From IMG/VR virus record IMGVR_UViG_3300026549_002532, positions 1 through 64,000 of that record: a stretch of DNA of 64,000 nucleotides. The stretch is one strand, 5' to 3'. Made by a program: the position numbers and the translations under genes. Positions 4,839 through 60,204 of this stretch are shown here, piece by piece (position 1 is the first letter of the stretch; each line of letters begins with the position of its first letter). The DNA is from a virus. Its lineage: Duplodnaviria > Caudoviricetes. The notes beneath the pieces are model-generated. The model had not been told where the DNA came from and searched no databases. It saw only the letters and a list, made by a program, of their open reading frames with translations.

Positions 4839-4873
4839 CAAAAGTAACTCAACCGCTTAGACGTTGAAAAGAC
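4839..4873 (-). promoter_or_regulatory. Phage module promoter copy 1 (GTCTTTT-N20-TACTTTTG)
   Basis: Plus strand CAAAAGTA 4839-4846, AAAAGAC 4867-4873. Confidence 0.65.
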
Positions 4874-4879
4874 GAATGT

Positions 4880-5275
4880 CTAAACTCTATTAGATGCAAC
4901 TATCAAGTGTAAAATTTCAATCAATCTCTCAGCACTGCCACTTCGGAACTTCAGTGGTAGAGTTTTTATCTGTTCTTCAGTTATAAAAAAAGAGAATCCT
5001 TGTAATCTTGAAAACAGACTTTCATAGTTAATTTTAACCTGTTCTTCCATTTTTTTACTCAATGCTTCATTATTATCTTCAACAAGATGCATGTATAAAG
5101 CATCATCTCTCATTGGACCATGAGGTGCAAAAACAGTTCCCTGAGGTACTATGCATTTATCTCCGCCAGTAAACGGAGCAGCAAAATGCACAAGATATTC
5201 TAATTCCGTATCTTCTGCTACTTCAAAAACATTTTCGTCTATCTTTAAAGACTCGATATATTCACGTGTTGCCAT
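4880..5275 (-). CDS. AT-rich moron, hypothetical protein
   Basis: 131 aa, low GC, own -7 box (TATTTTTG on minus strand near 5293-5300). Confidence 0.7.
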   Translation of the reverse strand: MATREYIESLKIDENVFEVAEDTELEYLVHFAAPFTGGDKCIVPQGTVFAPHGPMRDDALYMHLVEDNNEALSKKMEEQVKINYESLFSRLQGFSFFITEEQIKTLPLKFRSGSAERLIEILHLIVASNRV

Positions 5276-5312
5276 AGGATTTTTTTATGCCACAAAAATA
5301 GTGAAAAATATT

Positions 5313-8300
5313 TTACTTGCGTCTATTTTTGGGGGATTTGTTATTCATCAACCTTTGATAATCGTCCTGCGCTTGCTTGATGCCGAGATCGCCGGTCACG
5401 GTGTTCACGGTGACAAACGGCTCGTTGAGCCTTTCATTCAAGCGAGCGAGCGTTTCACGCAGGGCTTTGTTCTCTTGAACAATGACTGTCGGGGCCTGAG
5501 ACTGCGCCAGCACTGCGGGAGCAGTGATCGTGCGGCTCACATCGGTTTGCCTCAGACTGCCGATAGTGTTTGTCCGCTGCGCATAGTCCAGCGCCTCAAT
5601 CAATGGGCGAGCCACCGGCGAGGCGAGCAGTCGCTGCGAAGCCACCCATTCCCCTGCGTGCACCACACCTGCCACCTCATCGACTCGCCCGGGACGGGTG
5701 AAGCCGCCCTCGGCGTAGCCCTGTGCCTGTGATGCCTGTTGCTGCTTCTTGATGGCGGCCACCTGCATCATTCCAGCGGCCACGGCCATAGCCGCCGCAA
5801 TCGGGGCGATGACGTAGCCCACCACCGGGATAGCCGCTGCCGATGAGTAGGCGTTGAGCGCCGCCGTTGCCGTTTGCGCCACGGCTTGGATAACTTGCAT
5901 GGCAAACAACTTGCGGTTCGCCTCGTCCTTGACTTTGGCGACCTCTTTCTGCTTCTGCTTCTCCAGTTGCTTCGTCTTGTACTTGTTGCCCTCGGCCATG
6001 CTGACCTCACGCTCGTAGCGCTTCTCAATGGCGGCAGTCTCAATCTCCATCTCAGCCTGAACCAGTGAAGAAAGCTGCGAGAAGATTGAGGACATTCCGC
6101 TGGTCAGAGCCTCAACCGACTTGGTGAGTGCCTGCCCCCCGTCACCATTGAGCCAATCGAGCAGGTCTTGGTTCCACTTCTCCAGCGCGTTGCGGTCTTC
6201 CTCGCTCCCTGCCTGGTTGTACTTCTTCTTCAGGGCGAGCTTCGCCTTTTCGTAAGCCTCATCGATGCGCAGTTTCTCTGCGGCATTGTCGCCGGCAGCC
6301 TTGACTTCGGCTTGGTACACATCATCGAGGTTGGCCATAGCCGCATTGTACTGCTCCAGATTCTCGGCTGCGTTGTTGCCGAAATACTCCTCTTTCAGTT
6401 TCTTCAGCTCGTCTTGGTGCTTCTTCTCGGCATCCTCGGTCTCCTTGCGTCGCCGCTCCATGTCCTGCATGAGCCGTTGGCGGTAGTTCGCCTCGGCTTG
6501 CAGCCGTTCCTCGGTGCCTTCCTCCTGAATTTCCACAAGAGCCCGCAGGTGGGCGAACTCGATGTTCTCCATCTGCATGTCGTAGGCTTGCTTGGAGAGT
6601 TTGCCGTCGAGGTAGTCCTGCTGCGTTTCCGCTTTCAGTTCCTCGTAGCCCTGTTTTTCATCGGCGATGCGGCGTTTCAGGTCAAGCTCGTCGCGTTTCT
6701 TCATCTCCTCGGCATATTGCGCCGATATGGTCAGCCGCTCATTCTCCGACAGGTCGGTGTGAGCCAGCTGCTTTTGATAGAACTCCGCCGTTATCTCATT
6801 CATGCGCTCGGTGTACTTCTGGTAATCAATGACCCCGGTCGCGTATGCGATACGGTTCAAAGCCTCCTGCCTCTCTCGCCACTCCTTTTCCGCCTTGAAC
6901 TTGTCAACCGTGGCGGTTGATCTGCCGCCACGTCCGCCACCATGTCCGCTGCCGCTGCCCGTAGCACCGCCGGTCGGTGTGTAGGGCGTGAAGTCCACCG
7001 TCTGGTTTTCGAGGTCTTTGGCGGAAATCTCGTATTTCTCGGCAAGCGTCTGGTTGGCCTTGTTCAAGGCTGCGATTTTGCTCTCCGTCTGCTTGCGTGC
7101 CGCGGTGGCGGCATTCGCCGCCGCCCTTGCCTGGTCCACCTTTTCGTTTTCTCTGTTATAGACCTGCTCACGCTCGCGCTGCGCCGTGTTCGACTCCCTG
7201 ATGTCTCCCAGAGCGTAGCCTTGCGCCTTTTCCCGTGCTTGCTGCTTCTTCTTGTCGGCTTGCCGCTGCACCTGTTCAGCGTGAGCCGTCTTCTTCTGCT
7301 CATCCTCACGCTGCGTTTCCAGCGTACCCTCCAGTGCCAGCAGTTCTTTCTCGTTCTCCTCAATCTTGGCGGCCGCCGCCCTCGCCCTCGCCGAAGCGAT
7401 GATGGCCGAGGTGAGGTCGCGGTACTGCTTCGCCGCCTGCCCAGTGAGAATAGCCTCGGTGGTGAGGTTTCCGAACACCGACGGGTAGAGCTGCTGCAGC
7501 CGTTTCGCCGCCTCGATGCGCTTCTCCTTTGAGAGTGCCTCGTTGGTGGCTTCCTTGTAGAGCGCTTTCAGTCGGGTAATCTCATTGGCCGAGAACTGCG
7601 CCGAAGCCTCGTCTATGTTCGTCAGCGACTGCTTCCATTTCGCCATCTCCTCGCGCTGCTCACGGAGCCTTTGGTTCGCCTCGCGCGTCTTGTTGACGAA
7701 GTGGGCGATACCGGCTATGACTGCCGATAGAATAGAGAGCAGCAGTCCCCATGGTGATGACTTCGTGAGCAGGTGGAAAGCGGTGTAGGCAGCTTTGGCC
7801 TTGCCAATCTGCCCGGTCAGCCCGAAGAAGGCCACTTTCAAGGCCAGCGTCGCCGTGGAAAGCGCCTTCATCGTCCCCTGCGAGATCACGAGCCAAGCGT
7901 AGTGCGCACGCAGGGCGATGGTGCTGGCGTTCACCGCCACCTTGTAAACCGTCCAAGAGATGGCAAACGTGATGATGGCCGCCTTGTATTTGATGATGAA
8001 ATCGACAAATACCGACATCACGCGCATGAGCGCCGAAGTGCCGCTGATAGCGTAACGCATCACCGGCATGAGTTTCTGCCCGAGCGCGGCAGCCATCTCG
8101 TTGAAGCCCTTGCGAGCCTTGTCGAGTTGGGCCTGAACCGTGTTGTTCTGCACATTGTATTCTTTCGTGACCGATGTCGCCTGGTCAAAAGCCCTTGAAG
8201 CCTCCTGCTGCTGTTTCTTCACCATGTCGATATTGCCGGCAAGTGCGGAGATCACCTGCGCCGCACGTGCTCCGTTCTCGCCCATGTCCTTGAAAACAGG

Positions 8301-9473
8301 GGCGAGAACGTCGATGTTGCCGAGTTCGTGCAGCCGTTCGAGCAACATCAGCAAACCCTCGTTGGTGTCTCGTGTCAGTGCCTCCTTGAACTTGGCTGCA
8401 TTGATGCCGGTCGCCTTGATGACCTTGTCCTGCTGCTTGAACATATCCATGACCAACTTACTGACGGCGGTCGCCGACATTTCCACCGCCTGGCCCTGCG
8501 AGTCAAGCACAGCCGCGAAGCCCATGATTTGCGGAATCGTCATCTTGGCTTGCGCTCCCACGCCCGCCATTCGCTGCGCGAAGTTGGCGAGGTATGGAGC
8601 CGACGCGGTGCAGTTCTGCGACAGCTCATTGATGACCGAGCCCACGGCAAGCAACGACTGCTCCACGCCGAGGCGTTGCTTGTCGCCGAATATGTCGGTC
8701 AGTTTGGAGAGGGTAAGCGTCGCTCCCTCGCCCAGGTCGTCAAGAGCCACATTGATTTGGTTCGCCGCCTTGACGAAGCCCAGCACGTCCTGCTCCGACT
8801 GCAAGCCGAGCCGTCCAGCTTCCTGCGCGAGTTTGTTCAAGTCCTCCCGGCTGGTTCGTGTGTCAATCTTCTTGAACTGCTCGTTCAGTTTCTCCACCTC
8901 CTCGGCTGTCATGCCCGTAAACTTGCGGACAGAGGCCATTTCAGCGTCAATGTCCGCATAGACCTGCACAGCGGCTTTGCCGGCCATGACGATGCCGGTC
9001 ACGGCGGCAGCCGCGCCCATGATACTCATCTGCCAGTCGTTGAGCACCCGATTGAAACGCTGCCATTTCGATTCAGAGAGCGTAAGTTCCCCGTTGACTT
9101 TAGCCAGTTCCTCTTTGACCAGTCGGATTTTAGCGGTGTGTGCGTTCCACGCCTCGCTGCCTCGTTCCATGTAGTCCAGCTGCCGGTTGAGTGTTTGGAG
9201 TGTCTTGTTCAGCTCTTTGGGTGTAGCACGGTCGAGGCGCAGCATGACCCGCTCCACCTGCTGTGTGGCGGTCTCGATTTCCCTCATCTGCCTACGGGTG
9301 TCGCCGAGTTCACGGCGCAGTTTCCGCAGCTCCACCTTGTTCCCTGCCATAGCCGCTTTTGCGATGGCATTCTCCAACTCCATTGCACGCTGCTTCAGCA
9401 TTTGCAGGACTTGGAGGGGTTGCTGACCGTTCACGGTCAGGTTGACCGTTGCTTGACTGTTTATGTTGCTCAT
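5313..9473 (-). CDS. Phage tail tape measure protein
   Basis: 1386 aa, Ala/Glu/Lys-rich coiled coil; TP901-type core 'ASVRKFTGMTAEEVEKLNEQFKKIDTRTSREDLNKLAQEAGRLG'. Confidence 0.92.
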   Translation of the reverse strand: MSNINSQATVNLTVNGQQPLQVLQMLKQRAMELENAIAKAAMAGNKVELRKLRRELGDTRRQMREIETATQQVERVMLRLDRATPKELNKTLQTLNRQLDYMERGSEAWNAHTAKIRLVKEELAKVNGELTLSESKWQRFNRVLNDWQMSIMGAAAAVTGIVMAGKAAVQVYADIDAEMASVRKFTGMTAEEVEKLNEQFKKIDTRTSREDLNKLAQEAGRLGLQSEQDVLGFVKAANQINVALDDLGEGATLTLSKLTDIFGDKQRLGVEQSLLAVGSVINELSQNCTASAPYLANFAQRMAGVGAQAKMTIPQIMGFAAVLDSQGQAVEMSATAVSKLVMDMFKQQDKVIKATGINAAKFKEALTRDTNEGLLMLLERLHELGNIDVLAPVFKDMGENGARAAQVISALAGNIDMVKKQQQEASRAFDQATSVTKEYNVQNNTVQAQLDKARKGFNEMAAALGQKLMPVMRYAISGTSALMRVMSVFVDFIIKYKAAIITFAISWTVYKVAVNASTIALRAHYAWLVISQGTMKALSTATLALKVAFFGLTGQIGKAKAAYTAFHLLTKSSPWGLLLSILSAVIAGIAHFVNKTREANQRLREQREEMAKWKQSLTNIDEASAQFSANEITRLKALYKEATNEALSKEKRIEAAKRLQQLYPSVFGNLTTEAILTGQAAKQYRDLTSAIIASARARAAAAKIEENEKELLALEGTLETQREDEQKKTAHAEQVQRQADKKKQQAREKAQGYALGDIRESNTAQREREQVYNRENEKVDQARAAANAATAARKQTESKIAALNKANQTLAEKYEISAKDLENQTVDFTPYTPTGGATGSGSGHGGGRGGRSTATVDKFKAEKEWRERQEALNRIAYATGVIDYQKYTERMNEITAEFYQKQLAHTDLSENERLTISAQYAEEMKKRDELDLKRRIADEKQGYEELKAETQQDYLDGKLSKQAYDMQMENIEFAHLRALVEIQEEGTEERLQAEANYRQRLMQDMERRRKETEDAEKKHQDELKKLKEEYFGNNAAENLEQYNAAMANLDDVYQAEVKAAGDNAAEKLRIDEAYEKAKLALKKKYNQAGSEEDRNALEKWNQDLLDWLNGDGGQALTKSVEALTSGMSSIFSQLSSLVQAEMEIETAAIEKRYEREVSMAEGNKYKTKQLEKQKQKEVAKVKDEANRKLFAMQVIQAVAQTATAALNAYSSAAAIPVVGYVIAPIAAAMAVAAGMMQVAAIKKQQQASQAQGYAEGGFTRPGRVDEVAGVVHAGEWVASQRLLASPVARPLIEALDYAQRTNTIGSLRQTDVSRTITAPAVLAQSQAPTVIVQENKALRETLARLNERLNEPFVTVNTVTGDLGIKQAQDDYQRLMNNKSPKNRRK

Positions 9474-9492: not shown

Positions 9493-9527
9493 CAAAATTA
9501 GAAACGGCTATCGAGCGGTTAAAAGAC
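9493..9527 (-). promoter_or_regulatory. Phage module promoter copy 2
   Basis: CAAAATTA 9493-9500, 20 nt, AAAAGAC 9521-9527; 20 nt upstream of the tape-measure ATG. Confidence 0.7.
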
Positions 9528-9588: not shown

Positions 9589-10203
9589 ATGGAATCAATA
9601 TATAGCAAAGATAAATATGGAATTGTCAGGAATAGATATGGCAATTTCCACATTGGTAAATATAACTTTCGGTATCAAGGTAGGAAACCAAGGTTTGATA
9701 TGTATGGAATAACTACCAAGAAGAGAGGGATTGGAGTGAGTTCATATATTCAATGGATTGAACAAATGCTTCCAACCGATTATCCTTTTGAAATTAGTGA
9801 GGAAGTATTTAATAAAATCAACATCATCATAAGGAACAATGTGGCTGAAGTCAAAAACATTTTATCCCTTCAACCAGAACAAGAAATGAGCCATCAGTTA
9901 AACAGCAAATTCTTCATCAAAACTGATAGGTTCTATTCTGCCCATAGTATCACATTAATATCTTCAACGTCAGGTTCAGAATTTTATGATGAAATATTAA
10001 TTGGAGAAAATGAATTTCTTGAATTGAACTATATTTCTACTTCATTAACACCATCATATCATATTAACAAAGGGGAATGCTTTTATTTAAGTGATTTCAT
10101 ATTTGATTATATAAAGGAAAAGACACTTCAAACATCAGCATTGCTTAAAAACCTTTGTGCTTCTATTTACAAGCCATCCCCTTTGGATGTACCATCTCTA
10201 TAA
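9589..10203 (+). CDS. AT-rich moron, hypothetical protein
   Basis: 204 aa, very low GC, oriented against the phage genes. Confidence 0.7.
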   Translation: MESIYSKDKYGIVRNRYGNFHIGKYNFRYQGRKPRFDMYGITTKKRGIGVSSYIQWIEQMLPTDYPFEISEEVFNKINIIIRNNVAEVKNILSLQPEQEMSHQLNSKFFIKTDRFYSAHSITLISSTSGSEFYDEILIGENEFLELNYISTSLTPSYHINKGECFYLSDFIFDYIKEKTLQTSALLKNLCASIYKPSPLDVPSL

Positions 10204-12079: not shown

Positions 12080-12628
12080 TTATTTACCTCTTTCTTTCAG
12101 CCAAATGATGATGATTGTACCAACGAGCAGCCCTGTGAGCAGGAGCCACGGCCACCACGTCACGTCGGGAGGCTTCATGATACCCACGTTGTCACGGGCG
12201 TAATGGTCTGCCTTGTCGATTGAGCGGTGAGCCGACAGTGTGTCCACCTGTTCAGCAAGACGCGCAGCGTCGCGCTGAACGATGTCGGCTTTGCCCAATC
12301 GTGCGTGTTTGCCCCGCAGGACAACCGAGCGCAGCGTAGGTTGTACTGCACCAAGGGCAAACTGTTCAGGCAGATCCATCGCCGTGTCACCGACCATTTT
12401 GCCGATTTCAGCAAAATGGTGAGTGGGTATGATAATCTCGAAGCTGTCGATGTCGAGGGAAATGCGGCTCAACCACTGCGACCGCGAAGTGGTCGCAATG
12501 GAACTTGAGCCAGCCGCCTCGATGTCGTACTGCTCTTTCGTGGTAGCCGTGGTTTCCTTATGACTTCGGCAAGCCACGAGCAAAACCACAGCAAGCATTG
12601 CCGTGGTTGTCGCGCGTGGTGTTCTCAT
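12080..12628 (-). CDS. Lipoprotein with C-terminal TM helix; candidate unimolecular spanin
   Basis: Lipobox 'LLVAC', C-terminal 'WWPWLLLTGLLVGTIIIIWL'; directly downstream of the endolysin. Confidence 0.6.
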   Translation of the reverse strand: MRTPRATTTAMLAVVLLVACRSHKETTATTKEQYDIEAAGSSSIATTSRSQWLSRISLDIDSFEIIIPTHHFAEIGKMVGDTAMDLPEQFALGAVQPTLRSVVLRGKHARLGKADIVQRDAARLAEQVDTLSAHRSIDKADHYARDNVGIMKPPDVTWWPWLLLTGLLVGTIIIIWLKERGK

Positions 12629-13248
12629 AGTCCGAAGTGTTTAGCGATGCAGGTGCGGTGCAGTTCTACAATCTTTGCCTTGCCCTCTGGTGATGAGAGA
12701 AAATCCACGTCCTCGTGGTTGTCTTGGAACAAGTTTTCTGTCAGCACCGCAGGGCAAGCTGTGTTCTTCACCACATAGAAATTGGCTTGCCAATAGTGTT
12801 CGCTGGGGATGGAGCGGTTGCCGCGCAACCCCATGGCGATTGCGGTATCGCAAAACGATTTGGCGAGCCTCTTACTCGCTGCGGAGCATTGTCGAGCCAC
12901 ATAGACCGCGAAGCCTCGTGCTGTGTGCCACTGCCCGTCAGAACCTGCGGCGTTGACGTGGATGCTCACGTAGACGCAGTTCTGCGTGCCGAACTTTGAG
13001 CAAATTCCGTTGACGTACCGGCAACGGAGCGAAAGTTCGGTGCTGCCCGGTCGTGGCACCTCGTCGCCTGGCATATCGACAAAGACGAGCAAGCCGAGTG
13101 CTTCGAGTTGTGGCTTGAGCAGGTTGATGACTTCACGGCTGAACCTGTACTCACGGAACTTCTTATCGGGCGAGCATTTCCCCGGCACGTTGCTGCCGTG
13201 CGCCGTGCCGAGGATGACTACTTTATTGGCGGTTGTGTTCTGCATCAT
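12625..13248 (-). CDS. Endolysin, N-acetylmuramoyl-L-alanine amidase (Amidase_3)
   Basis: Zn-binding motifs 'GTAHG', 'EYRFSRE', 'SIHVNA', 'VLTENLFQDN'. Confidence 0.9.
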   Translation of the reverse strand: MMQNTTANKVVILGTAHGSNVPGKCSPDKKFREYRFSREVINLLKPQLEALGLLVFVDMPGDEVPRPGSTELSLRCRYVNGICSKFGTQNCVYVSIHVNAAGSDGQWHTARGFAVYVARQCSAASKRLAKSFCDTAIAMGLRGNRSIPSEHYWQANFYVVKNTACPAVLTENLFQDNHEDVDFLSSPEGKAKIVELHRTCIAKHFGL

Positions 13249-14784: not shown

Positions 14785-14928
14785 ATGTCGCTCTTGCTCA
14801 TCCTTGTCTTTATAGGTGTGCTCTCGCTCACCTTTTTTTGTGCCTACCGCTCGAAAATCCATTCGAAGCCCTCCGCTGTAATAGCATTGCTGACGTGGAA
14901 CGGCACGATTGGCGTGACGAGGTTTTGA
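14785..14928 (+). CDS. Possible small membrane protein (moron)
   Basis: -7 box TACCTTTG near 14733 followed by MSLLLILVFIGVLSLTFFCAYR; overlaps the 3' end of the tail-fibre gene. Confidence 0.25.
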   Translation: MSLLLILVFIGVLSLTFFCAYRSKIHSKPSAVIALLTWNGTIGVTRF

Positions 14929-16331
14929 GCCAGCAGCCTCTGCCGCTTGCGAGCCTTTTGGTTGGCGAAAGCGAGTCCATAGAGCAAGCGCACTTTGCGG
15001 TTGACAAAGTTGCCTTGTTCGTTCTTCCTCATCAGCTCCACTCTTGACTTGCCGTATGGCACATAAGGGCGACCACTACTTATGTCCGTCGCTTCGTTTA
15101 TGAAGAAGCGTGCTTCACACTGATAGTCTTCGAATTCATCAAGTTCGAGATTGTCATGAGGCAGCACTTTCTTGGAAATTTTCACTTCCTCGAGTGGCCC
15201 GAATGTGATGGTGTCGCAGTCACCGACCACATTCCAGCCTTTGCGCAGTTCGCCATGATCCTTGATGCCATTGATTTTTCTCCTGTTCCGTTTTCTTGAA
15301 TATCGGAACAGATATGGCGTGTAGCCTTGCCGCACGAGCGCGAGTGCGCCATGCAGACGCAAGGCTTCAATGCCGCGGTTGATTTCTATGGCGAGAGGGA
15401 AATAAGTCTTGTTTACGGTGTAGCCGTCGCTGCCGAACACGGCTTGCCGCAGTGCTTCCAACTGCTTGCAGTGCGCTGCAGTCATCACTCCTGCGCCATG
15501 CTGCGAGGCTGCCGAGAGAAAGAACTGCTGCAATTCTATCTCTCGCTCGCCAGTGGCGAGGTTGTAGCCGAACAGCTGTATGCCGATTCTGTTGGTGTCG
15601 ATGAGGCATACCGATGCTCCGTCGACCACAGCCCCTGCGCCTTGCACGGTGCGCATCTTGGCTTGCAGGGTGGAGATGTCGGTCTTGGCGTTGGCGAGCG
15701 ACGTGACGTGCGCCACCGTCATTGCTCCCGCCTGGCTGGTGTTGGCAGCAGCGATTGAGCAGGTGCCCAGCCCAGCGAAATCCTCACCTGTTCGCACATC
15801 GTGCTTGGTGAGGGAAAGATTAATCTTTGAGGCATTGCCTGTTCCCTGGCGAATGTCGGTCACGACATAGCCAGCCGCTTGAATCGCCGCCAACTGCCAT
15901 CCGTGCTGTTGAGCGGTGGACTGCAAGGCGGTAACCGCCGAGCGCACCTGCGGCAGCGAGGCCTGTAACGACATGATGGCTTGCACATGGCTTGCTGACA
16001 TCACCCCGGCTTGCATGTCGGTTGCCGCCGACAGCGGCACCGACGAGGTGAAGGTCGCGCCGTTGCGCAGACTTCTGCCTTTTAGTGTGAGAAACATGTG
16101 CTCCATGTCGACCATGCCGGTAGCGTGGGCGACATCATAAACGACGACGTATTGCGAGAGCATCGTTTTCCAGTCATCGAGGATTTGCCGCTCCGCGTCC
16201 GTCGATGCGGTGGCGAGCAGGTCGACAATATCTTGCAGCAGCTTGCCGACAGTCTCTGGCGAGATGGACTCCTTTTCTGTCTCGACCCGAAAAGCGGAAA
16301 CGAGTGAGGTGAGTTGTGAAATATCAATCAT
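14844..16331 (-). CDS. Tail fibre / receptor-binding-like protein
   Basis: Likely start MIDISQLTSLV at 16331; three internal repeats of 'AA..xQAGxM(T/S)AxH' with coiled segments. Confidence 0.55.
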   Translation of the reverse strand: MIDISQLTSLVSAFRVETEKESISPETVGKLLQDIVDLLATASTDAERQILDDWKTMLSQYVVVYDVAHATGMVDMEHMFLTLKGRSLRNGATFTSSVPLSAATDMQAGVMSASHVQAIMSLQASLPQVRSAVTALQSTAQQHGWQLAAIQAAGYVVTDIRQGTGNASKINLSLTKHDVRTGEDFAGLGTCSIAAANTSQAGAMTVAHVTSLANAKTDISTLQAKMRTVQGAGAVVDGASVCLIDTNRIGIQLFGYNLATGEREIELQQFFLSAASQHGAGVMTAAHCKQLEALRQAVFGSDGYTVNKTYFPLAIEINRGIEALRLHGALALVRQGYTPYLFRYSRKRNRRKINGIKDHGELRKGWNVVGDCDTITFGPLEEVKISKKVLPHDNLELDEFEDYQCEARFFINEATDISSGRPYVPYGKSRVELMRKNEQGNFVNRKVRLLYGLAFANQKARKRQRLLAQNLVTPIVPFHVSNAITAEGFEWIFER

Positions 16332-16351
16332 AATCTTTTGCGATTTTGTTG

Positions 16352-16386
16352 CAAAAGTAGATTGATACGGTTGCTCAGCAAAAGAC
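16352..16386 (-). promoter_or_regulatory. Phage module promoter copy 3
   Basis: CAAAAGTA 16352-16359, 20 nt, AAAAGAC 16380-16386. Confidence 0.7.
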
Positions 16387-16424
16387 ACGATTTTTGGCGA
16401 AAAAATTGTACCTTTGCAGCCACT

Positions 16425-16748
16425 ATGACACGAGAAGATGCGATAACTTTTTGCCGTTATTATAAAGGTGAGGATGAAAGTCCTTATTCAGACCAAAACG
16501 AATCGATGCTTTGGTTTTATGAACGTGCATGGGTATATAAAATGTTTCATGAAGATACTGATAGTTTTGGAATAATGTTGGAAGAATACTTATTCTCAGG
16601 GCTTTCAGACTTTGAGAAGTTTGATGATATACCGATAACTCTAAAGGCTTTATTGTTCAATCGTTATTGTAAGACTGCTCAATCTATGTTGTCCGCAGTA
16701 GAACCTTTCAAAAAATTTTATCATAAGTATTACACTGACCATCAATGA
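16425..16748 (+). CDS. AT-rich moron, hypothetical protein
   Basis: Own -7 box TACCTTTG just upstream; MTREDAITFCRYYKGEDESPY..., opposite orientation to the phage genes. Confidence 0.7.
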   Translation: MTREDAITFCRYYKGEDESPYSDQNESMLWFYERAWVYKMFHEDTDSFGIMLEEYLFSGLSDFEKFDDIPITLKALLFNRYCKTAQSMLSAVEPFKKFYHKYYTDHQ

Positions 16749-20607: not shown

Positions 20608-20628
20608 AATTCTGCGATTTTAACACCG

Positions 20629-20663
20629 CAAAATTATGGAGTTAGATCCGATGCCTAAAAGAC
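20629..20663 (-). promoter_or_regulatory. Phage module promoter copy 4
   Basis: CAAAATTA 20629-20636, 20 nt, AAAAGAC 20657-20663. Confidence 0.7.
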
Positions 20664-21400: not shown

Positions 21401-21523
21401 TAGCACTAGATCAGTGCAAGTACTATTAAGCGGTTCGTGATTTGCATAGTAAACTATCATTTGAAAAAAAGCGGGTGCCTCAATCACAAGGCACCCACCC
21501 TTAGTTCATAAATAACATTGTCG

Positions 21524-23540: not shown

Positions 23541-23644
23541 CATAAACAAAGCAAATTCCCGAAAAGTCCAAACTTTTCGGGAATTTAGCGTTAAGACAAG
23601 TCTCCTTGTGTTCTTGAGACTTTATGTTCTTATGTCTTATCGGG

Positions 23645-24030: not shown

Positions 24031-24066
24031 TTTTCTTCAATCAGTGGACTTTGAGATGCGAAAAAT

Positions 24067-52664: not shown

Positions 52665-54302
52665 CTACAGTACGCCACTACTGCTGATGCTGAAAGCATT
52701 GCGGTAAGGGAACTTCTCGCAGCCGATGTAGAGGGTGTCGAAAGCGTCGGTGCCATCGGTGCGGTGTTCGAGCAGGTTCTCCTCGTTTTCCGCGAGTTTT
52801 TCGCCGCCTTTGTCCTTTCGGAAGCCGTTGCGCCCACGAACTACTCCTGCCGTTTGAATGGCAAGGATCAGGTCGTCGTTGTTTTGGCGGTTGAACATCG
52901 GCATGAGCCGTTGTTTACCGGCAAAACCCTGGTTGATGAGCAGGTACTTCTCATCGTGGCGCATGGGATTTCCGAGGTTGATGTCCTCCACCTGCCAGCC
53001 GTGCCGCTCGAACTCGTGGCACACCACCCAGTGGAAGTCCTGCTCGTTGACGGCATAGTTGCCGCCGAGCGCGGTACTGTCGTAGTAATAGACCACGACC
53101 TTGCATTGGTGGTGGGCGTAGTAGCGGCAAAAGTCGTCAATGAGCGCAGGTATCTTGCGCTCGAACTTCGTGTAGAACGACTTGATGACGTTGAGCCGTC
53201 GGCCTGTTGGCTGCCCGGCCACAATCCAATTGATGTTGGCATTGTAGTCCATGCCGATGCAAATGGGCGCAAACGGGTTCAAGTCCTTGTCGGCTCGGCA
53301 GTCGAGTTGGGCCTCGTTGAAGTCGTAGCCCAGACTGTCAAGGTATTCAAAATCGCTGGCGTTGTACTTGTGGCCCTCACGCATCGACGAATAGAAGCCG
53401 TCTTTGGCGATGCCTATTCGTTGACAAAGTATTGACGTTTGGAAAGTCTTTGGCGTGAGGTCGCGCTTCATCTGTTTGATGTAACTTTCGCCCAGTAGTT
53501 GTAGATTTTCAATGCTGCTGTATTCTTTGTAATACACCGCCACGGAGCGCATTTTGTTCAAGTCCTTATCGAGCCGTCGCAGATAAGTTCTAAGGTGCTT
53601 CGGCACGGTCGCGCCCTGCGCATTATAAGCACGGATGCGCTCTTTGACTTTCCAAATCTCATAGATAGTGGCCTTTATCGTCTCGATTAAGTCCACGTCC
53701 ATCTTATCTTGATAGTGGAGAAACCACGAGCCTTTTTGCGTCTGCGGCATATCGCTCAAAATCATGACAGAATGATTAAACGAGTGATGCCCGAAGTAAG
53801 ACTTGATGCCGCCGTTCGCCGGTAGCGTCTCATCTTTAAGCCGTTCATAATCTATGAACTTGGCCTCGTCAATGAGCAGCCATGAGAGCGTGAGCGAGTT
53901 GGAGCTGCCCGGTCGGTCTTGCGAAATGATAATGGCGCAAGAGCCGTTGTAGAACGTGATGACGTGCTCATATTCGGCAGGCTCGATGATGGGCTTGCCG
54001 AAAGACTTGGGCGGTCGCCGTCCAATCACATAGTGAACACCTCTGATATAGCCCCATCGTTTCCACGCGGCGAGCAAGCCCGGGATGGTGTTCGTCAGTC
54101 CGTGCTTGTAGGTCGGCACCACGATGCCGCCTGTTGAGCCGGCCATGCGTTGCATATTACGCAACACAAAAGGCGAGGCGATAGAGTCGGTCTTGCCTGT
54201 GCGTCGCCCTGCGACAATGACCGTTGTATTGGCACCAATCAACTGCGTCAGTCGCTGCGGCGTATTAAAGTATATTTGTTTCTTGGGATTTTCCATCTTC
54301 AA
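52665..54302 (-). CDS. Terminase large subunit
   Basis: Walker A 'AGRRTGKT', Walker B 'LIDEAK', nuclease acidic motifs 'GMDYNA' and 'DGTDAFD'. Confidence 0.88.
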   Translation of the reverse strand: MKMENPKKQIYFNTPQRLTQLIGANTTVIVAGRRTGKTDSIASPFVLRNMQRMAGSTGGIVVPTYKHGLTNTIPGLLAAWKRWGYIRGVHYVIGRRPPKSFGKPIIEPAEYEHVITFYNGSCAIIISQDRPGSSNSLTLSWLLIDEAKFIDYERLKDETLPANGGIKSYFGHHSFNHSVMILSDMPQTQKGSWFLHYQDKMDVDLIETIKATIYEIWKVKERIRAYNAQGATVPKHLRTYLRRLDKDLNKMRSVAVYYKEYSSIENLQLLGESYIKQMKRDLTPKTFQTSILCQRIGIAKDGFYSSMREGHKYNASDFEYLDSLGYDFNEAQLDCRADKDLNPFAPICIGMDYNANINWIVAGQPTGRRLNVIKSFYTKFERKIPALIDDFCRYYAHHQCKVVVYYYDSTALGGNYAVNEQDFHWVVCHEFERHGWQVEDINLGNPMRHDEKYLLINQGFAGKQRLMPMFNRQNNDDLILAIQTAGVVRGRNGFRKDKGGEKLAENEENLLEHRTDGTDAFDTLYIGCEKFPYRNAFSISSSGVL

Positions 54303-54906
54303 GGGTGTCGGGTGGGAATAGTGCGTTTTCTTCGAGGTCGGCTTCCTCGAACTCGATATCCTCTATGTCGATATTCTCGGCCTGGTACTTATGCAGCAGC
54401 TCCGCAATTCGCTCATTGAGGTTAGGCATGGGTTTGATGCCGAGCACTGTCGGGTCGTCGGTGGCGGTGAAGGGCTGCACCACGATCAGGTCATACGGCA
54501 CGGCTTGCTCGTCTTCAAGGTCAACACGGTTGAACTTGGCGTAAGAGCTGGCCGCCTTTTCCATTGTCTTCGAGTCCTTGCGGCTCTTTGCCATCTGATA
54601 CGTCTCCAGTATCATCTCGTTGAAGCGATAGCGGTGGAAATCGCGCGTCGCTTGCGAGAGGTGCGGCAGCAGTGCCTTGACAATGGCAAGGTCGCTGTAG
54701 GCTTGGGTCTTATTGATGCCATGGCGTGAGATGGCGTTATCGACAAACTGGCGGTCTTTAGCGTCGGGATTGGAGAGAAACCAGTTGTATTCCTCACGAA
54801 TACGCAGCACCCGAAGCACGATTGCCTCGGTGTACTTCTGCCGCAGCTCGTCCTCACTGGTGAACAGGTCGAGGCGGCAAGCGTCTATGGGCTTCAACTG
54901 ATGCAT
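54265..54906 (-). CDS. Probable terminase small subunit
   Basis: Helical 213-aa protein overlapping the terL start. Confidence 0.45.
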   Translation of the reverse strand: MHQLKPIDACRLDLFTSEDELRQKYTEAIVLRVLRIREEYNWFLSNPDAKDRQFVDNAISRHGINKTQAYSDLAIVKALLPHLSQATRDFHRYRFNEMILETYQMAKSRKDSKTMEKAASSYAKFNRVDLEDEQAVPYDLIVVQPFTATDDPTVLGIKPMPNLNERIAELLHKYQAENIDIEDIEFEEADLEENALFPPDTLEDGKSQETNIL

Positions 54907-54909
54907 AGT

Positions 54910-55185
54910 TTATTCGTCGTCTTCCATGTCAAGCAGGTTGCGATGCACATTGTCGATGGCAAGCGGTGAACCCACCTGCGCCAACATCATTTCCTGGTGC
55001 AGGAGTTTCACTTTTGAGCCGGCCTTGCCACGAAGGTAACGTTGGCTCACCTCGGTAGAGCGGTTGCCAATGTCTTCCCTCAGGATTTCGGCAGGAATAC
55101 CGAGTATTACTGCCATGTCCGAAATCTTCAAGTAGATGGAAGCGAATTGTTCGACTTGCGTCAGTTGTTCTTCAGTGTAGGTCAT
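54910..55185 (-). CDS. Small phage protein (HTH-like)
   Basis: 91 aa in the packaging operon. Confidence 0.6.
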   Translation of the reverse strand: MTYTEEQLTQVEQFASIYLKISDMAVILGIPAEILREDIGNRSTEVSQRYLRGKAGSKVKLLHQEMMLAQVGSPLAIDNVHRNLLDMEDDE

Positions 55186-55700
55186 AACGTCAATTTTTGA
55201 GCTAACAGGTCGTTCAGGGGAACGGAATGATTGCGGATTAAATCTTCAATTTGGGTGTGCAAAGTGATGAACAATTCGGGGTCGGTCGTGACCACAGCAC
55301 TCTCGCTTCTGTTACCTCGTGTTAGATTTTGAGATGTGATGATGCTCACCACTTCGCCACGCTCGCTGCGTACCAGCAGCACCTTGCTGTGGTTGTCTGC
55401 AAGGTAGGTGGTGGTGATAACCTGCGTGATGAACGCCCACAGTTTGAGCGTCTTGTTGGTGGCCTTGTGGTCGAGCACGAGGTTGAACCGAGTGACGAGG
55501 CCGGACTTCTCGATGAAGAACAATCGGCGAATGAACTCCTCGCTGATTGAGAATGAGGTCTGCCACACCTCGGACTTGCCGAGTTGTTGCAGCACCCAGT
55601 CGAGCACGTCCGCCACCTGCAAGGCGTTAGAGAGATAAGCCTGATAGGGCTTTTCTCGCAGTGGCTTCAAAAAATCTTCTATTGAGGCACTACGTTTCAT
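55182..55700 (-). CDS. Phospholipase D-family (single HKD) nuclease-like protein
   Basis: 'NHSKVLLV...SIITSQNLT' = HxK...S.N PLD motif. Confidence 0.7.
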   Translation of the reverse strand: MKRSASIEDFLKPLREKPYQAYLSNALQVADVLDWVLQQLGKSEVWQTSFSISEEFIRRLFFIEKSGLVTRFNLVLDHKATNKTLKLWAFITQVITTTYLADNHSKVLLVRSERGEVVSIITSQNLTRGNRSESAVVTTDPELFITLHTQIEDLIRNHSVPLNDLLAQKLTL

Positions 55701-55846
55701 CTATTTGAAGTAATTTTGCAGCGTTAATGAGAGGTCTAACGAGTGGGGCGACCACGCCTATTCGTATTCGTCTGTTTTTACAGAGGCTTCTCACATCGGC
55801 GGCAGGTGAGTCCTGGCCGTTTTTTCATGTACTATAGATGCCTGTA

Positions 55847-56563
55847 TTACAATATTTCCAACTCTTTGAGGTCCGCGGTGAGCTTGTCGGTGGGATTGAT
55901 AACCTTGCTGTAAAGCGCGAGGATCTGGGCTTTCAGTTCCTCGCTGGGCTTTTTGGCGTAGCGTCCTTTGGCAAGGTTAATCATGCGCACCGCCTTACGG
56001 CTTTCCTCACGGGCTTCATTCTCCATGACCGCTGCGCCGTCTGTGCCGGTGTAGTGGTCGTAGGTCTCCCAGTTCGAGTGGAGCTTCTTGTCGAGGTCGA
56101 TAAGTTCTTTAAGGAACGGATAACGGTCACAGTCGCGAGCCGGATTATCCTCTGTCGATAGCGAGCGCAACTTCAAGTGCAGTTCGCGCATCCGTTGCAC
56201 AATGCCCAGGTTCTCGACATAGAGAGCCTGAATCTCATCGGGCAGCAGGTCGTGGTCATCACGCTTGCCCTGTTTGAAACTCTCGCCGGTGTTGGGGGTC
56301 AAAACTTTTTTGGCAATCACGTTTACCTGTGATTGCATCTCCTCAACCTGCGCGTGCGTGAGCTTCTGCAAGCGGAACGAAAGTCGTTTCTGCAACTGGC
56401 GTTCAATGAACTCGGCGTTACGCCGCGGGTTCGCCATCAGATTGCGGTACTGGATTTGATTGCCCGTGAGTTGTAGCAAGTAGAGTGCTCCTTTGGCGTA
56501 GTCGCGCTGCTCATGGGGCAAGTACAGCCAATCTTGAATTTCTTTCGTAAACTCTTGGTTCAT
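55847..56563 (-). CDS. Hypothetical phage protein
   Basis: 238 aa helical, operonic. Confidence 0.65.
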   Translation of the reverse strand: MNQEFTKEIQDWLYLPHEQRDYAKGALYLLQLTGNQIQYRNLMANPRRNAEFIERQLQKRLSFRLQKLTHAQVEEMQSQVNVIAKKVLTPNTGESFKQGKRDDHDLLPDEIQALYVENLGIVQRMRELHLKLRSLSTEDNPARDCDRYPFLKELIDLDKKLHSNWETYDHYTGTDGAAVMENEAREESRKAVRMINLAKGRYAKKPSEELKAQILALYSKVINPTDKLTADLKELEIL

Positions 56564-57200
56564 AGCTTATTATTCACATTTGAAAAGAATATGAGATTCT
56601 TGTTATAGCCTTGAAGCAGTTTCTTCATGGCGAGCAAAGTCTGTCCTGTGGTCACAAAGTCATCAAAAACTATGATGTTAGGCTCTTTCGGCAAGATATT
56701 CAGTTCAAAAACCGCGTTCACCCGCTGCTTTGTGTGGCAAAACGCCACATCCTCGTAGAACGGAATATCGAGCTGCCGCCCAATCTCCTCACTGATGAGC
56801 GTGGCGAAGTTCTTCACTTTGTGCCTACGTTTGGGCGAGGTGCAGATGCACCAGCCGCCCTTATCGAGGTGGAAGCCCAACATCTCCCTAATGACCGGCA
56901 CGATGCTGTCGGCAAAGAACCGCACCATGTCGGGGTCGGCCTTGATGTCGGTGAGTGTTCTGCCGTACACCGACTTCTGCCAGATGGAAACGAAGTTCAC
57001 ATTCGAGCGGCGCGTCAAGCGCAGTTTGTAGGAGAAATCACACCTTGCCTCGATGGATTTGTCCCACGACTTGCGCTTCTGCACGGCAAACAAATCCTTT
57101 TGTTGGGCGCGGCTCTGGGGTGCAGCGTCGCCGCCGGAATGAAAGTCGAGGGAACTGAGGTCGCTTACAGGAAAGGTCATGTCGCGCAAGACCTCTCCCA
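56560..57200 (-). CDS. Phosphoribosyltransferase (ComF-like type I PRTase)
   Basis: PRPP-binding loop 'IIVFDDFVTTGQT'; 'SPKRRH'; start uncertain. Confidence 0.8.
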
Positions 57201-57248
57201 TATCGACGGCAGCACCCTCGACCCGCGAGTGACTGTCAGCCATTCCGG

Positions 57249-58034
57249 TTAAGGATTGGCCGCAGCCGCTTGTTTCCAATCGGCGATTCTCTCGGTGAAC
57301 TCGTCAGCCGCCATGGTGTAGTCACCTGCGTTGGCAGCGACTATCTGCTCATAGACCGCCTCCACCTCTGCCGGTGTCTTGTTGGTGTCCTCGGCAACAG
57401 CGATGAACAAGTCATCGAAATTGTCCGTCGTGTAAACGGTGCCGTTGTACTCGATGGCGGCAGTCGAGGCCTGTTCAGGCTGGATGCTTCCGTCCTCGGT
57501 CTCAATCTTGCCGTAGTAGAACGGAGCGGGGCATTCGTCGGTGGCCTCCACCGAGAGCGTGGTGCTGGTCGTTCCCGTCGGGCCTTGCCCGAGGTCTTGC
57601 GCCACGGTCGATTTGACGAGCCATGCGTCGCTGCCGACCACGCGGAACTTGCCCGGCACGGTCTCGACGAGATAGACGCAATCGTTGTTGTTGACGTAAG
57701 CGGCGAGCGCCGAAGCGTCCACACCCACGCCCGGGTGAACAGCGGTCAGCTTGTTCAGCTGCGTCATCGAGGGGTATTCACCCTGCGCCTCGCTGGTGAG
57801 CTGCGACTTGTCGGGCAGGATGTCGATATACTTCCAAGTGGCATCGGCTGCCAAAACGAAATTGCCGACGTAAGCGGCGGTGGTCAGTCGCCCGCGGTTG
57901 TCATGTGCGAGCGTGGGCCACTTGACGATTTGGTCTTTGCCGATGTAGTAGATGCGGCGCTTGATGCCGGGGAGCTCGGGAGTTCCCTGACACCAAGCGA
58001 GCGATTTCAATATACTGGTACAATTCGTTGCCAT
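57249..58034 (-). CDS. Major tail (tube) protein-like
   Basis: Follows the capsid gene; beta-rich core 'PGIKRRIYY...SKSQLTSEAQGE...' with an acidic C-terminal extension. Confidence 0.5.
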   Translation of the reverse strand: MATNCTSILKSLAWCQGTPELPGIKRRIYYIGKDQIVKWPTLAHDNRGRLTTAAYVGNFVLAADATWKYIDILPDKSQLTSEAQGEYPSMTQLNKLTAVHPGVGVDASALAAYVNNNDCVYLVETVPGKFRVVGSDAWLVKSTVAQDLGQGPTGTTSTTLSVEATDECPAPFYYGKIETEDGSIQPEQASTAAIEYNGTVYTTDNFDDLFIAVAEDTNKTPAEVEAVYEQIVAANAGDYTMAADEFTERIADWKQAAAANP

Positions 58035-58066
58035 GTTTTTACTTCGTGATTAGTGGTGAATGACTA

Positions 58067-59035
58067 TTAGGCTGCCAGTTCGATGACTTTGAGCTTTCGG
58101 TAGTCGATGGACTCGAACTGCACGCCGAAGAACATGGTGGCGATGTACGAGAGTATGAACGGCTCGTACTCCTTGACCATGACGCTCTCCACGTCGCCCA
58201 TCTGGTCGTAACCCACGAGCATGTTGCTCTTGGGCGTGACGTGGATGAACTTCGAGTCGGCCTTGTTGAACAGCGGCACGATGTGGAGCTTGCCGTTGCT
58301 GCCCTCCACGGTGTTCTGCCCGAACTGGTTGTAGTAGTTGATACCGGCATGGGTGAGCAGCATGGCCTCGTTGTACTTGTCGGCGAAGTCCTGCGAGCAG
58401 TACATGTTCAGCTCCTGGGCACGCAGACGTGGGTCGAGCGAGTAGAGGATTTCCTTTGCGATGTCGAGCGCGTTGGCGGTGGTGATTTCCTCGGTGAGCT
58501 TCATGTAGTTCTTGTTGGCCACGCTGATCTTGTCGGCGGCGATTTCAGCAGCGGTGATGGTGTCGAAGCCGTCGAACAGGTCTTTGGTGGTGTCGCCGCT
58601 TGCGTTGCGTACACCGCTCCAAATAGCGTCATTAAGGCTTTCCGAAAGCCCTTTGGCGATGAGCGTGAGCACATGGAGCGCCGTGGGTGCCTGCATCTGG
58701 CCGTCACCTTTGGTGGCCGCCATGTAGCCGAGAATGGTGGATGCTGCGGAGTTCGGCTCGAACTTGCAGTGCACGGAGCCCATGAACGTCTCAAGGGTTC
58801 TGTATTCCACATTGAGATTGAAGTCGGTGGAGCGCGAGGGCTTGTAGGGCCCGAACTGCGCGTTGCCGCTGATGGCTCCCACGTTTTCCTTGTAGCGGAT
58901 GCTGGGGCGAGGAGTCATGTGCTGGATGGTGTCCTGGCACCCGATGATGGGCTGCATGAGCAGTTCGGGTCGCCACTTGGTGGCGGCCTCCTGGAACTGC
59001 TCCAGCGAGGGGGTGATGTTGAGTTGTCCTGCCAT
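58067..59035 (-). CDS. Major capsid protein
   Basis: 322 aa directly after protease/scaffold; HK97-like size and P-loop-region pattern. Confidence 0.7.
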   Translation of the reverse strand: MAGQLNITPSLEQFQEAATKWRPELLMQPIIGCQDTIQHMTPRPSIRYKENVGAISGNAQFGPYKPSRSTDFNLNVEYRTLETFMGSVHCKFEPNSAASTILGYMAATKGDGQMQAPTALHVLTLIAKGLSESLNDAIWSGVRNASGDTTKDLFDGFDTITAAEIAADKISVANKNYMKLTEEITTANALDIAKEILYSLDPRLRAQELNMYCSQDFADKYNEAMLLTHAGINYYNQFGQNTVEGSNGKLHIVPLFNKADSKFIHVTPKSNMLVGYDQMGDVESVMVKEYEPFILSYIATMFFGVQFESIDYRKLKVIELAA

Positions 59036-59063
59036 ATTACTTTGAGATTAGAGATGAGCGAAT

Positions 59064-60149
59064 TTAGGGAACTTGGTTGAACAGCTTCTTGGCGTTGTTC
59101 ACCTTGTCGGCGAACACGTCAAAGGGAGACTTGGCGGTCTGTTGCGGAGCATCGACCACCACTTGTGACTTTTCGGCAGGGTTGGCTTTCAATGCCTGAA
59201 CCTGCTCGGCGAGTTCGGTGTTGCGCTTGTCGCGGTCAGCGATGGCACGCTCAACGGCGAGCGCTTGCTCTGCGGTGAGCTTCACACCGTCCTCGCCCAC
59301 AGCGAAGCCCTCGATGTTGAGGACTTCGCCAAGGAGCGAAAGGGACTGGAGCATGGTTGCGGATGGTTTGAGTGTTGGGGAAGATGGATGATTATTTTCG
59401 TTATGACTAGCTTTTTCTTTCATTTCAGCTTGGGGATTTCCGGCGGATATTTGTTCGTGTTCGGCCTCCTTGGCGGACTTGAACAGCGAGGCAATGGCAG
59501 CGATGAAACGCTCGATGAGCGTCTCATTGCGGCTGTAGGCTGTGGGTATGTTCGGAATGGGCATACCGGCAGCCGCCATCGCCGAAGCCACCGCGTCGGT
59601 GAGCACCGGCTTGGTCTCGCCCAGGTCGGTGATCTCATCGACAAAGCCCCAGGCCTTCGCCTCTTTAGCGGTGAGCCAGCCGCCTACTCGCATGAGGTCG
59701 AGCAGGTCGGCCTCGGGCTTGCTGCACTTGGCCGAATACATCGCGGCAACATTGTTGTCGAGTTTGTTGAGGTCTCGGATTGCCGCCTCGCAGTTGTCGC
59801 GGACAGTTGCGAGCTGGTCGGCATTCAGGCTTCCCCACTCGAAAAACTCCGCGCTGCACTTGTGCACGAGGTACATGGCCGATGCGTCGATGCTGATGTG
59901 CCTGGCACCGAGCGAAGCGATGGTCGCGGCACTGGCATTCATGCCCACGAAGTGGACGGTGACATCGCCATGACGTTTGAACGCCGAGGCGATGGAGATG
60001 GCGGTCGCCAGCGAACCGCCGAGGCTGTCGATAAGCACGTGGACCGGCTTGCCCTCGTTCTTGGCAAGCACATAGTCCACATAGTCGCGGTCGAAGTCGT
60101 AGCCTCCGACGTAGCCTTTGAGGTGGAGATTGTATTTAGTCTGTGGCAT
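59064..60149 (-). CDS. Clp-type head maturation protease with scaffold tail
   Basis: 'IDSLGGS', 'NASAATIASLG', 'YLVHK', 'WLTAKEAKAWGFVDEI'; coiled-coil C-terminus. Confidence 0.88.
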   Translation of the reverse strand: MPQTKYNLHLKGYVGGYDFDRDYVDYVLAKNEGKPVHVLIDSLGGSLATAISIASAFKRHGDVTVHFVGMNASAATIASLGARHISIDASAMYLVHKCSAEFFEWGSLNADQLATVRDNCEAAIRDLNKLDNNVAAMYSAKCSKPEADLLDLMRVGGWLTAKEAKAWGFVDEITDLGETKPVLTDAVASAMAAAGMPIPNIPTAYSRNETLIERFIAAIASLFKSAKEAEHEQISAGNPQAEMKEKASHNENNHPSSPTLKPSATMLQSLSLLGEVLNIEGFAVGEDGVKLTAEQALAVERAIADRDKRNTELAEQVQALKANPAEKSQVVVDAPQQTAKSPFDVFADKVNNAKKLFNQVP

Positions 60150-60169
60150 AATCGTACTGATTTTTGCCA

Positions 60170-60204
60170 CAAAATTATAAAGGTGCAAGTGCCGCATAAA
60201 AGAC
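60170..60204 (-). promoter_or_regulatory. Phage module promoter copy 6
   Basis: CAAAATTA 60170-60177, 20 nt, AAAAGAC 60198-60204. Confidence 0.7.

Follow-up and report, generated by a model that had tools for sequence, protein, structure and literature searches.

The window analysed here comprises 64,000 nucleotides (nt), bases 1-64000 of a 76,675-bp (base pair) IMG/VR provirus (IMGVR_UViG_3300026549_002532), and belongs to a siphovirus-like prophage from a Bacteroidales host in which a bipartite motif, GTCTTTT-N20-TAnTTTTG, repeatedly precedes genes of the late region. The explanation that best fits this motif, to which we give a probability of about 0.6 as a whole, is that it represents a late promoter class used solely by a single large, uncharacterised family of siphovirus-like prophages of the Bacteroidales, that it stands at the junctions between accessory (cargo) DNA and core late genes, that a phage-encoded factor acts on its upstream box at the -33 position, and that a palindrome surrounding it serves as an insulator. 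The idea of a phage-specific promoter that makes late modules independent of the cargo beside them had been put forward in a preliminary description of the window, and has been largely borne out, although the statement that the motif marks every module and every cargo slot is too strong. No published paper was found that pairs GTCTTTT with a Bacteroid* promoter or otherwise describes the motif, which appears not to have been described previously; the kinds to which it belongs, namely phage-specific promoter classes and moron or defence hotspots, are already known.

The pattern GTCTTTT-N20-TAnTTTTG matches the window at exactly six positions, all six on the minus strand and all at the places named in the preliminary description, and matched none of the 100 dinucleotide-preserving shuffles of the window that served as the control for chance. 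Allowing two mismatches in the search adds just one further match, a dubious one on the plus strand. As GTCTTTT by itself is not enriched in the window (12 occurrences against 10.5 expected), the signal resides in the bipartite arrangement. The distance from the last G of the motif to the ATG is 19-21 nt at five copies and 89 nt at the copy at 4839. A seventh exact copy (73763-73797) and an eighth, with TATCTTTG as its 3′ box (76355-76389), lie past the window in the same 76.7-kb provirus, and the density of the motif in the prophage is approximately one copy per 10 kb. The copies in the window precede genes for proteins whose lengths are given in amino acids (aa):

4839-4873, minus strand: motif copy 1, before the 672-aa gene 2731-4749, with the 89-nt leader.
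9493-9527, minus strand: motif copy 2, before the tape measure gene 5313-9473.
16352-16386, minus strand: motif copy 3, before the 495-aa core gene 14844-16331, in a unit that includes the endolysin gene 12625-13248.
20629-20663, minus strand: motif copy 4, before the portal gene 19246-20607.
25458-25492, minus strand: motif copy 5, before the core genes of 378 aa (24300-25436) and 77 aa (24067-24300), at the downstream edge of the defence island.
60170-60204, minus strand: motif copy 6, before the gene of the ClpP-type head protease, 59064-60149.

The downstream genes thus belong to separate modules (head protease, portal, tape measure, and the endolysin-containing unit), as had been proposed. 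The names tape measure, ClpP-type head protease and portal also hold, the portal identity being backed by matches to annotated portals, while the labels "tail fibre" for 14844-16331 and "host fragment" for the DNA at 20.7-24 kb are unsupported. Searches of PHROGs and Pfam returned nothing for most core proteins, including those of 672, 495, 378, 322, 166, and 142 aa.

By its sequence, the 3′ box of the motif is the -7 element of Bacteroidota sigma-A promoters, TAnnTTTG. The published Bacteroidota consensus, determined in Flavobacterium, is TAHHTTTG and spans positions -12 to -5 (PMC6847099). All eight copies in the record carry a box of the TAnnTTTG type, and in a logo built from 197 non-redundant motif sites in relatives, G accounts for 5% and 0% of the bases at the two variable positions. 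The same logo displays T (88%) or C immediately before GTCTTTT, C after the TTTG, an A in 78% of the sites five bases past the G, and an A-rich leader. The start site is most likely this conserved A, which would leave an A-rich leader of 15-18 nt. On the numbering of PMC6847099, GTCTTTT occupies positions -39 to -33, and (T)GTCTTTT approximately -40 to -33. The canonical -33 TTTG, about 19 nt upstream of the -7 box, is not present; TTTT stands there together with the invariant GTC extension, and the base that would complete the TTTG is G in merely 15% of the sites and in two of the six in the window. The motif therefore joins a host-type -7 box to a different and longer box at the -33 position, in agreement with the extended -33 element of the preliminary description.

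The promoter, leader, and gene start at 4839 are homologous to those of the copy at 73763. A second -7-like box, TATTTTTG, is found inside the leader of the 4839 copy (window 4814-4821, minus strand), and the TTTG of the first -7 box lies 17 nt upstream of it, so that the two may form tandem promoters.

The family to which the motif is confined was delineated by a portal search, which returned 230 related stretches among viral contigs and another 229 among genomes. The genomes belong to the Muribaculaceae, to Prevotellaceae/Prevotella/Xylanibacter, and to the Bacteroidaceae, and include cultured isolates, among them Xylanibacter ruminicola, Prevotella spp., and Duncaniella muris. In 80 viral portal loci (1.09 Mb), a relaxed pattern matched 164 times in the forward and 0 times in the reverse orientation relative to the portal gene, and 160 of these 164 matches have a spacing of exactly N20 with spacers that are unrelated to one another. 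Circularity was avoided by anchoring sites solely on the -7-like box nearest the portal ATG, and GTCTTTT was invariant in all 80 unique sequences anchored in this manner. Each of five carrier genomes (2.7-3.8 Mb) contains one co-oriented cluster of 3-6 matches across 6-50 kb, and the three stray matches in carrier genomes have the same or family-like sequence; the complete viral relatives likewise carry 3-6 co-oriented copies each.

Among 121 genomes of the host family of one carrier, scattered matches, counted after setting aside three recognisable clusters, amount to about 0.65 per genome compared with 0.48 for a reversed-pattern control, from which it follows that host chromosomes do not use the motif beyond chance; the claim that it is phage-specific is thereby upheld. 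A scan of the whole collection for a 14-base pattern gave, among the matches listed, mostly single ones. Megablast against deposited phages returned one 120-bp match and no near relative, and the best match of the portal protein, at 31% identity, is to an uncultured phage.

Most copies of the motif are predicted to lie inside a palindrome that spans the presumed start site, a feature absent from the preliminary description, and this hairpin design appears not to have been described previously. Two classes can be distinguished. In class 1, which has short leaders, spacer positions 21-31, including the TA of the -7 box, pair with positions -3 to +6 of the ATG, and an inner stem often lies within the leader. 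In class 2, represented by the copies at 4839, 73763, and 76355 and by one group of sites from relatives, the -7 box is located in the loop between two GC-rich arms, and a run of T follows. Hairpins are found at five of the six window sites, with z values from -2.3 to -8.1. Copy 1 has a class 2 hairpin at 4823-4857 (-22.2 kcal/mol, z = -4.0), copy 2 a weak one (z = -2.3), and copy 3 a hairpin at 16321-16368 that covers the ATG (-15.1 kcal/mol, z = -3.75). The hairpin at the portal copy, 20594-20649, consists of 20 consecutive pairs that join the spacer and -7 box to the start-codon region (-29.5 kcal/mol, z = -8.1), and that of copy 6, at 60140-60173, again covers the ATG (z = -2.8).

Across the family, perfect inverted repeats of at least 9 nt occur at 32% of 197 sites compared with 2.9% of permuted pairs, and spacer positions 22-24 pair with ATG positions +4 to +6 (codon 2) in 65-74% of 201 short-leader sites compared with 38-42% after permutation. 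In an alignment of 32 sequences, picked by leader length and left-arm type and not by pairing, the outer helix is 93.5% paired with compensatory changes in 6 of its 11 pairs, and the covariation score of 0.365 (0.133 in shuffled alignments) was reached in 0 of 500 shuffles, slid controls scoring at most 0.085. Compensatory changes are likewise found in 8 of 11 pairs of the class 2 alignment. Folding energies average -16.3 kcal/mol in the real sequences, -10.5 kcal/mol in chimeras with the left half of another site, and -2.8 kcal/mol in the promoter-started part alone, and the predicted unpaired value of the start codon is 0.28 in read-through RNA versus 0.51 in promoter-started RNA; in minimum-energy folds, the number of base pairs that cross the start site did not distinguish the real sequences from the chimeras.

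Since transcription is predicted to start past the 5′ arm, only read-through RNA could fold the hairpin. In Bacteroidota, where initiation proceeds without Shine-Dalgarno pairing, it is tuned by structure in the start-codon region (PMC6847099). A GC-rich stem followed by a U run is clear in the class 2 alignment (TTTTTT or TTTATT) and at 73763, where UUUUG follows a stem of 17 bp, and is weak or absent at most class 1 sites. A strict terminator-like hairpin just upstream of GTCTTTT was found at 10 of 155 sites, none of them in the window, so that the promoter unit does not in general include a terminator on its upstream side.

The placement of the motif was examined by an all-against-all comparison of the record with four complete relatives. 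In these five complete genomes, the motif nearly always precedes a core late gene and follows a gene unique to its genome, often on the opposite strand. In the window, the upstream gene edges nearest each motif (4880, 9589, 16425, 20747, 25602, and 60258) are 7-110 nt away, and none of the six genes nearest upstream has a homologue in the four relatives. The variable genes separate core genes that are direct neighbours in relatives, which identifies these places as cargo hotspots. Core genes carry the motif in 19 of 37 cases with a non-core upstream neighbour and in 5 of 68 with a core neighbour (odds ratio 13, p = 7e-7), in a test that relies on crude gene calls and on sites that are not phylogenetically independent.

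Larger samples of single junctions reveal two patterns. Between the 77-aa gene and the portal gene, the motif is found in 0 of 43 loci without an insert (gap below 60 nt) and in 89 of 98 loci with one (gap 62-5567 nt). Between a 145-aa gene and the 495-aa gene, it is found in 35 of 36 loci whose gap of 60-130 nt holds the promoter only and in all 37 loci with an insert (gap 148-3540 nt); zero loci have a gap below 60 nt, which puts the promoter in 72 of the 73 loci, and the variable DNA just upstream of it ranges from 0 to 3.5 kb. These counts indicate a standing promoter at the 495-aa junction and, at the portal junction, one that occurs only together with an insert. In loci L009-L011 (about 95% nucleotide identity), the portal gene lacks its first 13 codons, and the promoter and the 3.5-kb cargo are missing along with them, while in L089 and L090, which contain other cargo, homology to the window picks up again within the promoter spacer.

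Both the neighbour comparison and the 495-aa junction bear out the expectation that variable genes would abut the upstream side of the motif. The suggestion of a landing slot that exists before the cargo arrives fails at the portal junction, where the promoter is absent wherever the insert is absent and is therefore not a pre-existing landing pad. The view that no module and no cargo slot is without the motif goes too far: its association with cargo is strong, but several of the inserts found in relatives, and the accessory genes at 10.4-14.7 kb of the window, have no motif copy. The motif at the 25458 position is kept in all five complete genomes. Generic -7 boxes that lack GTCTTTT precede the 131-aa, 107-aa, 537-aa, AlbA, and WYL cargo genes. 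The cargo next to the motif copies comprises the following:

4880-5275, minus strand: cargo gene of 131 aa, flanked by the tape measure gene and motif copy 1; own generic -7 box at 5293-5300.
9589-10203, plus strand: 204-aa cargo gene, divergent, 62 nt upstream of motif copy 2; no family match and no homologue in relatives.
16425-16748, plus strand: 107-aa cargo gene, divergent, 39 nt upstream of motif copy 3; -7 box at 16409-16416.
20747-24040, minus strand: cargo block before the portal promoter, with genes of 121 aa, 94 aa (plus strand), 537 aa, and 144 aa; own generic -7 box at 23180-23187; no homologue in the four relatives.
25602-52475, minus strand: variable island from the large terminase to motif copy 5; no homologue in the four relatives for the gene adjacent to the motif.
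60258-61673, plus strand: Schlafen/AlbA_2 cargo gene with HATPase_c_4 and Fic-like C-terminal domains, divergent, present only in this genome; own generic promoter, TACCTTTG, at 60239-60246.

The variable island encodes a MutS-I protein, a DruH-like protein with a 2108-aa helicase, ApeA/HEPN, an Eco57I-type methylase, a WYL protein, and ASCH proteins. The equivalent slot in four relatives (L169-L181) is occupied by BREX (BrxC, PglX, and PglZ), a type III restriction-modification system, a type II restriction enzyme, or a helicase/MzaC-like protein, so that the slot holds a different defence system in every relative examined. This defence hotspot is situated within the late region, with the large terminase on one side and the portal-proximal genes on the other. 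In the cargo block before the portal promoter, the 537-aa protein (21524-23137, minus strand) and the adjacent 144-aa protein (20747-21181, minus strand) are paralogous, with 48% identity, and have no family match in Pfam, PHROGs, or PADLOC. Two further cargo promoters (window 28536-28577 and 29565-29606, minus strand) share a near-identical upstream segment, TGTGCAGATAGAGCGCACTTTTG, which contains a GTGC-N9-GCAC dyad ahead of the -7 boxes and looks like a common operator.

Along the minus strand, the prophage begins with the early genes, which include a cI-like helix-turn-helix (HTH) gene at 66576-66998 (plus strand), followed by a motif copy, the ClpP-type head protease, and eight core genes that end in a large terminase-like gene (52665-54302), the head block as a whole occupying 52665-60149. 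After the 27-kb variable island come a motif copy, the 378-aa and 77-aa genes, 3.3 kb of cargo, another motif copy, and the portal gene with four core genes. These are followed by a small divergent gene, a motif copy, the unit of the 495-aa gene and endolysin, a divergent gene, a motif copy, and the tape measure gene, and the order ends with the 131-aa gene, a motif copy, the 672-aa gene, and the integrase:

758-2293, plus strand: Bacteroidetes-type tyrosine integrase at the left prophage end.

This order is unusual for a siphovirus, since the block from head protease to large terminase (52665-60149) lies upstream of, and tens of kilobases from, the portal gene (19246-20607), and it is kept in all five complete genomes. 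Beyond the window, positions 67338-76675 of the record are a remnant of a second, related prophage in tandem, in which motif copies seven and eight are located. The remnant (67.3-76.7 kb) contains an integrase paralogue with 70% identity, a 197-aa tape-measure fragment with 96% identity, and two copies of the promoter and N-terminus of the 672-aa gene, one of them broken by a stop codon and an insertion of about 60 nt; it also encodes PA14/InlB-B-repeat and CarboxypepD_reg-like proteins.

In all relatives, a conserved pair of small core genes separates the first late promoter from the replication genes:

63451-63879 of the record, minus strand: 142-aa gene, a conserved small gene upstream of the first late promoter.
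64003-64503 of the record, minus strand: 166-aa gene, a conserved small gene upstream of the first late promoter.

The 166-aa family comprises 320 representative clusters, with distant homologues on contigs too short to extend as far as late promoters, and the gene itself is preceded by a near-motif, GTCTTTC-N20-TAATTTTG, at 64520-64554 of the record. The structural model of the protein has a pLDDT (predicted local distance difference test) of 93.5, and a wide structural search with this model gave chance-level Z scores up to 5.5, with three-helix DNA-binding domains, for its C-terminal half. The search for a GTCTTTT reader found nothing by profile search of solved structures and only unnamed viral clusters in a protein atlas. 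The 166-aa protein is accordingly regarded as a candidate reader of GTCTTTT and nothing more.

In the mechanism that we favour, host RNA polymerase with the primary sigma factor would recognise the canonical TAnnTTTG -7 box, and (T)GTCTTTT, exactly 20 nt upstream of it, would most likely be bound by a phage-encoded factor, as MotA of phage T4 acts on the middle-promoter box. Dependence on such a factor would keep the virion and lysis genes off in the lysogen and then turn them all on together. RNA started at the promoter would contain the 3′ arm alone and remain unstructured, while read-through RNA from the cargo would contain both arms and fold into the hairpin, in which the start codon would be hidden (class 1) or a terminator-like structure would form with the -7 box in its loop (class 2); the hairpin would in this way insulate the late genes from transcription of the cargo. 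Because the motif copies sit at accessory-DNA junctions, each downstream core block could be restarted whatever its upstream neighbour, and we propose that this restart is what allows the family to carry defence islands of 10-25 kb within its late region. A fuller version, in which the promoter-in-hairpin insulator and a private -33 box read by a phage protein, maybe the 166-aa protein, form a portable unit that makes defence islands swappable, is put forward only tentatively.

Several observations weigh against the favoured mechanism. That the motif acts as a promoter, where its transcripts start, that it fires late, that it needs a phage factor, and that the palindrome insulates are all points that we infer. 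Pfam assigned no family to the conserved early genes, the 166-aa protein included, and no activator or sigma-like protein was identified among them; with the 166-aa model, Foldseek returned nothing at E up to 0.001, and thus no significant fold match. The copy at 25458 has no significant hairpin (z = -0.19), many hairpins lack a U-tract, and the benefit of an insulator is hard to see at copies with a divergent gene upstream. In the five genomes, the motif is missing from about half of the junctions at which cargo meets a core gene, and the neighbour comparison carries the limits stated with it. In addition, the Bacteroides phage promoter P_BfP1E6 is reported to be constitutive in phage-free cells, so that host RNA polymerase alone might suffice.

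The last point leads to the alternative that survives best, although it is considered unlikely, namely that the copies are ordinary strong host-type promoters that need no phage factor, that GTCTTTT is the lineage's own -33 or UP-like variant read by sigma-A, and that silencing in the lysogen is achieved otherwise, for example by the hairpins or by a repressor that acts at another place. Besides the behaviour of P_BfP1E6, the fully canonical -7 box, the TTTT at the place of the host -33 TTTG, the weak conservation of the -33 element across Bacteroidota promoters in general (PMC6847099), and the failure of the Pfam, fold, and structure searches to find an activator would all fit such promoters. 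However, the 8-base box is invariant at a fixed spacing over at least 190 diverged sites and occurs at chance level in the host, which exceeds the constraint on a generic -33 element, and the G that would complete TTTG is rare (15% of the sites). Constitutive promoters before lysis and virion genes would moreover harm the lysogen.

It is also conceivable, and improbable in our estimation, that TGTCTTTT is an operator for a phage repressor, which would block sigma region 4 at all of the late promoters in the lysogen. In favour of this reading, the box overlaps with the -33 position, all late units carry it while the cargo promoters lack it, and the cI-like HTH gene could supply the protein. On the other hand, a single asymmetric 8-mer without a dyad partner would be unusual for an HTH repressor, and the avoidance of the canonical -33 G suggests a promoter that is weak unaided.

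A reading at the level of RNA, in which GUCUUUU and the hairpin form a leader cassette transcribed from upstream and opened by a phage RNA-binding protein, in the way that Mu Com acts on mom mRNA, is judged very improbable. It would account for the conservation, with covariation, of hairpins that hide the start codon or resemble terminators, and for a conserved single-stranded box fixed 13-14 nt before the 5′ arm. Nevertheless, it leaves unexplained the TAHHTTTG consensus and the N20 spacing typical of -33/-7 promoters, and no credible small open reading frame for a Com-like zinc ribbon (CxxC...CxxC) was found in the 76.7-kb record. At three of the window copies, the 39-62 nt that separate the motif from the start of a divergent upstream gene offer no intergenic room for another promoter, which, together with the -33/-7 geometry, favours a promoter over an RNA element. 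Finally, three of the copies (4839, 73763, and 76355) are true paralogues whose leaders are homologous, but an origin of the whole set as recent duplicates or chance matches without shared function is refuted by the unrelated spacers and invariant boxes of the other copies in the record, by their conservation throughout the family, and by the shuffled controls.

Late-gene control and the promoter classes of temperate Bacteroidales phages are almost unknown, and the motif provides a simple signature by which, in hundreds of prophages from gut and rumen, late transcription units and the borders of cargo and defence slots can be recognised. Under the proposed mechanism, it would account for the tolerance of defence islands of 10-25 kb amid structural genes. 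For the engineering of Bacteroides and Prevotella, it is a candidate orthogonal promoter that might come with a factor to match, and the palindrome design suggests a compact means by which translation could be made to depend on the promoter from which an RNA originates.

Compared with the Bacteroidota primary-sigma promoter (-33 TTTG and -7 TAnnTTTG), the motif shares the -7 box, including the exclusion of G from its variable positions, the A at the expected start, and the short A-rich leader without a Shine-Dalgarno sequence; it differs in its invariant, longer (T)GTCTTTT box at N20 and in its clustering in one prophage family only.

The middle promoters of phage T4 combine a host -10 box with a MotA box at -30 and are read with MotA and AsiA. 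As in these promoters, and more loosely in the late promoters governed by P2 Ogr and Mu C, the downstream host element is kept, the upstream element is exchanged for a phage-specific box at a fixed distance, and several copies head the phage's own gene blocks, whereas no homologue of MotA, AsiA, Ogr, or C has been identified here. P_BfP1E6 is a Bacteroides phage promoter built on the same host -7 logic and used as a strong constitutive expression part. Its defining upstream repeats reportedly differ from the GTCTTTT motif.

The arrangement of the cargo recalls lambdoid morons and P2/P4-like defence hotspots, in which accessory genes with their own promoters stand between core genes and one slot holds differing defence systems. 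In contrast to those systems, the slots here lie within the late region, one of them between the large terminase and the portal block, and are bounded downstream by a family-specific promoter set in a hairpin. The hairpins themselves resemble Mu Com/mom control and intrinsic terminators, in that those of class 1 would hide the start codon and those of class 2 are GC-rich stems followed by a T run; they differ in that no Com-like protein is encoded and in that the predicted start comes after the 5′ arm, which would tie the folding of each hairpin to the promoter from which its RNA was started.

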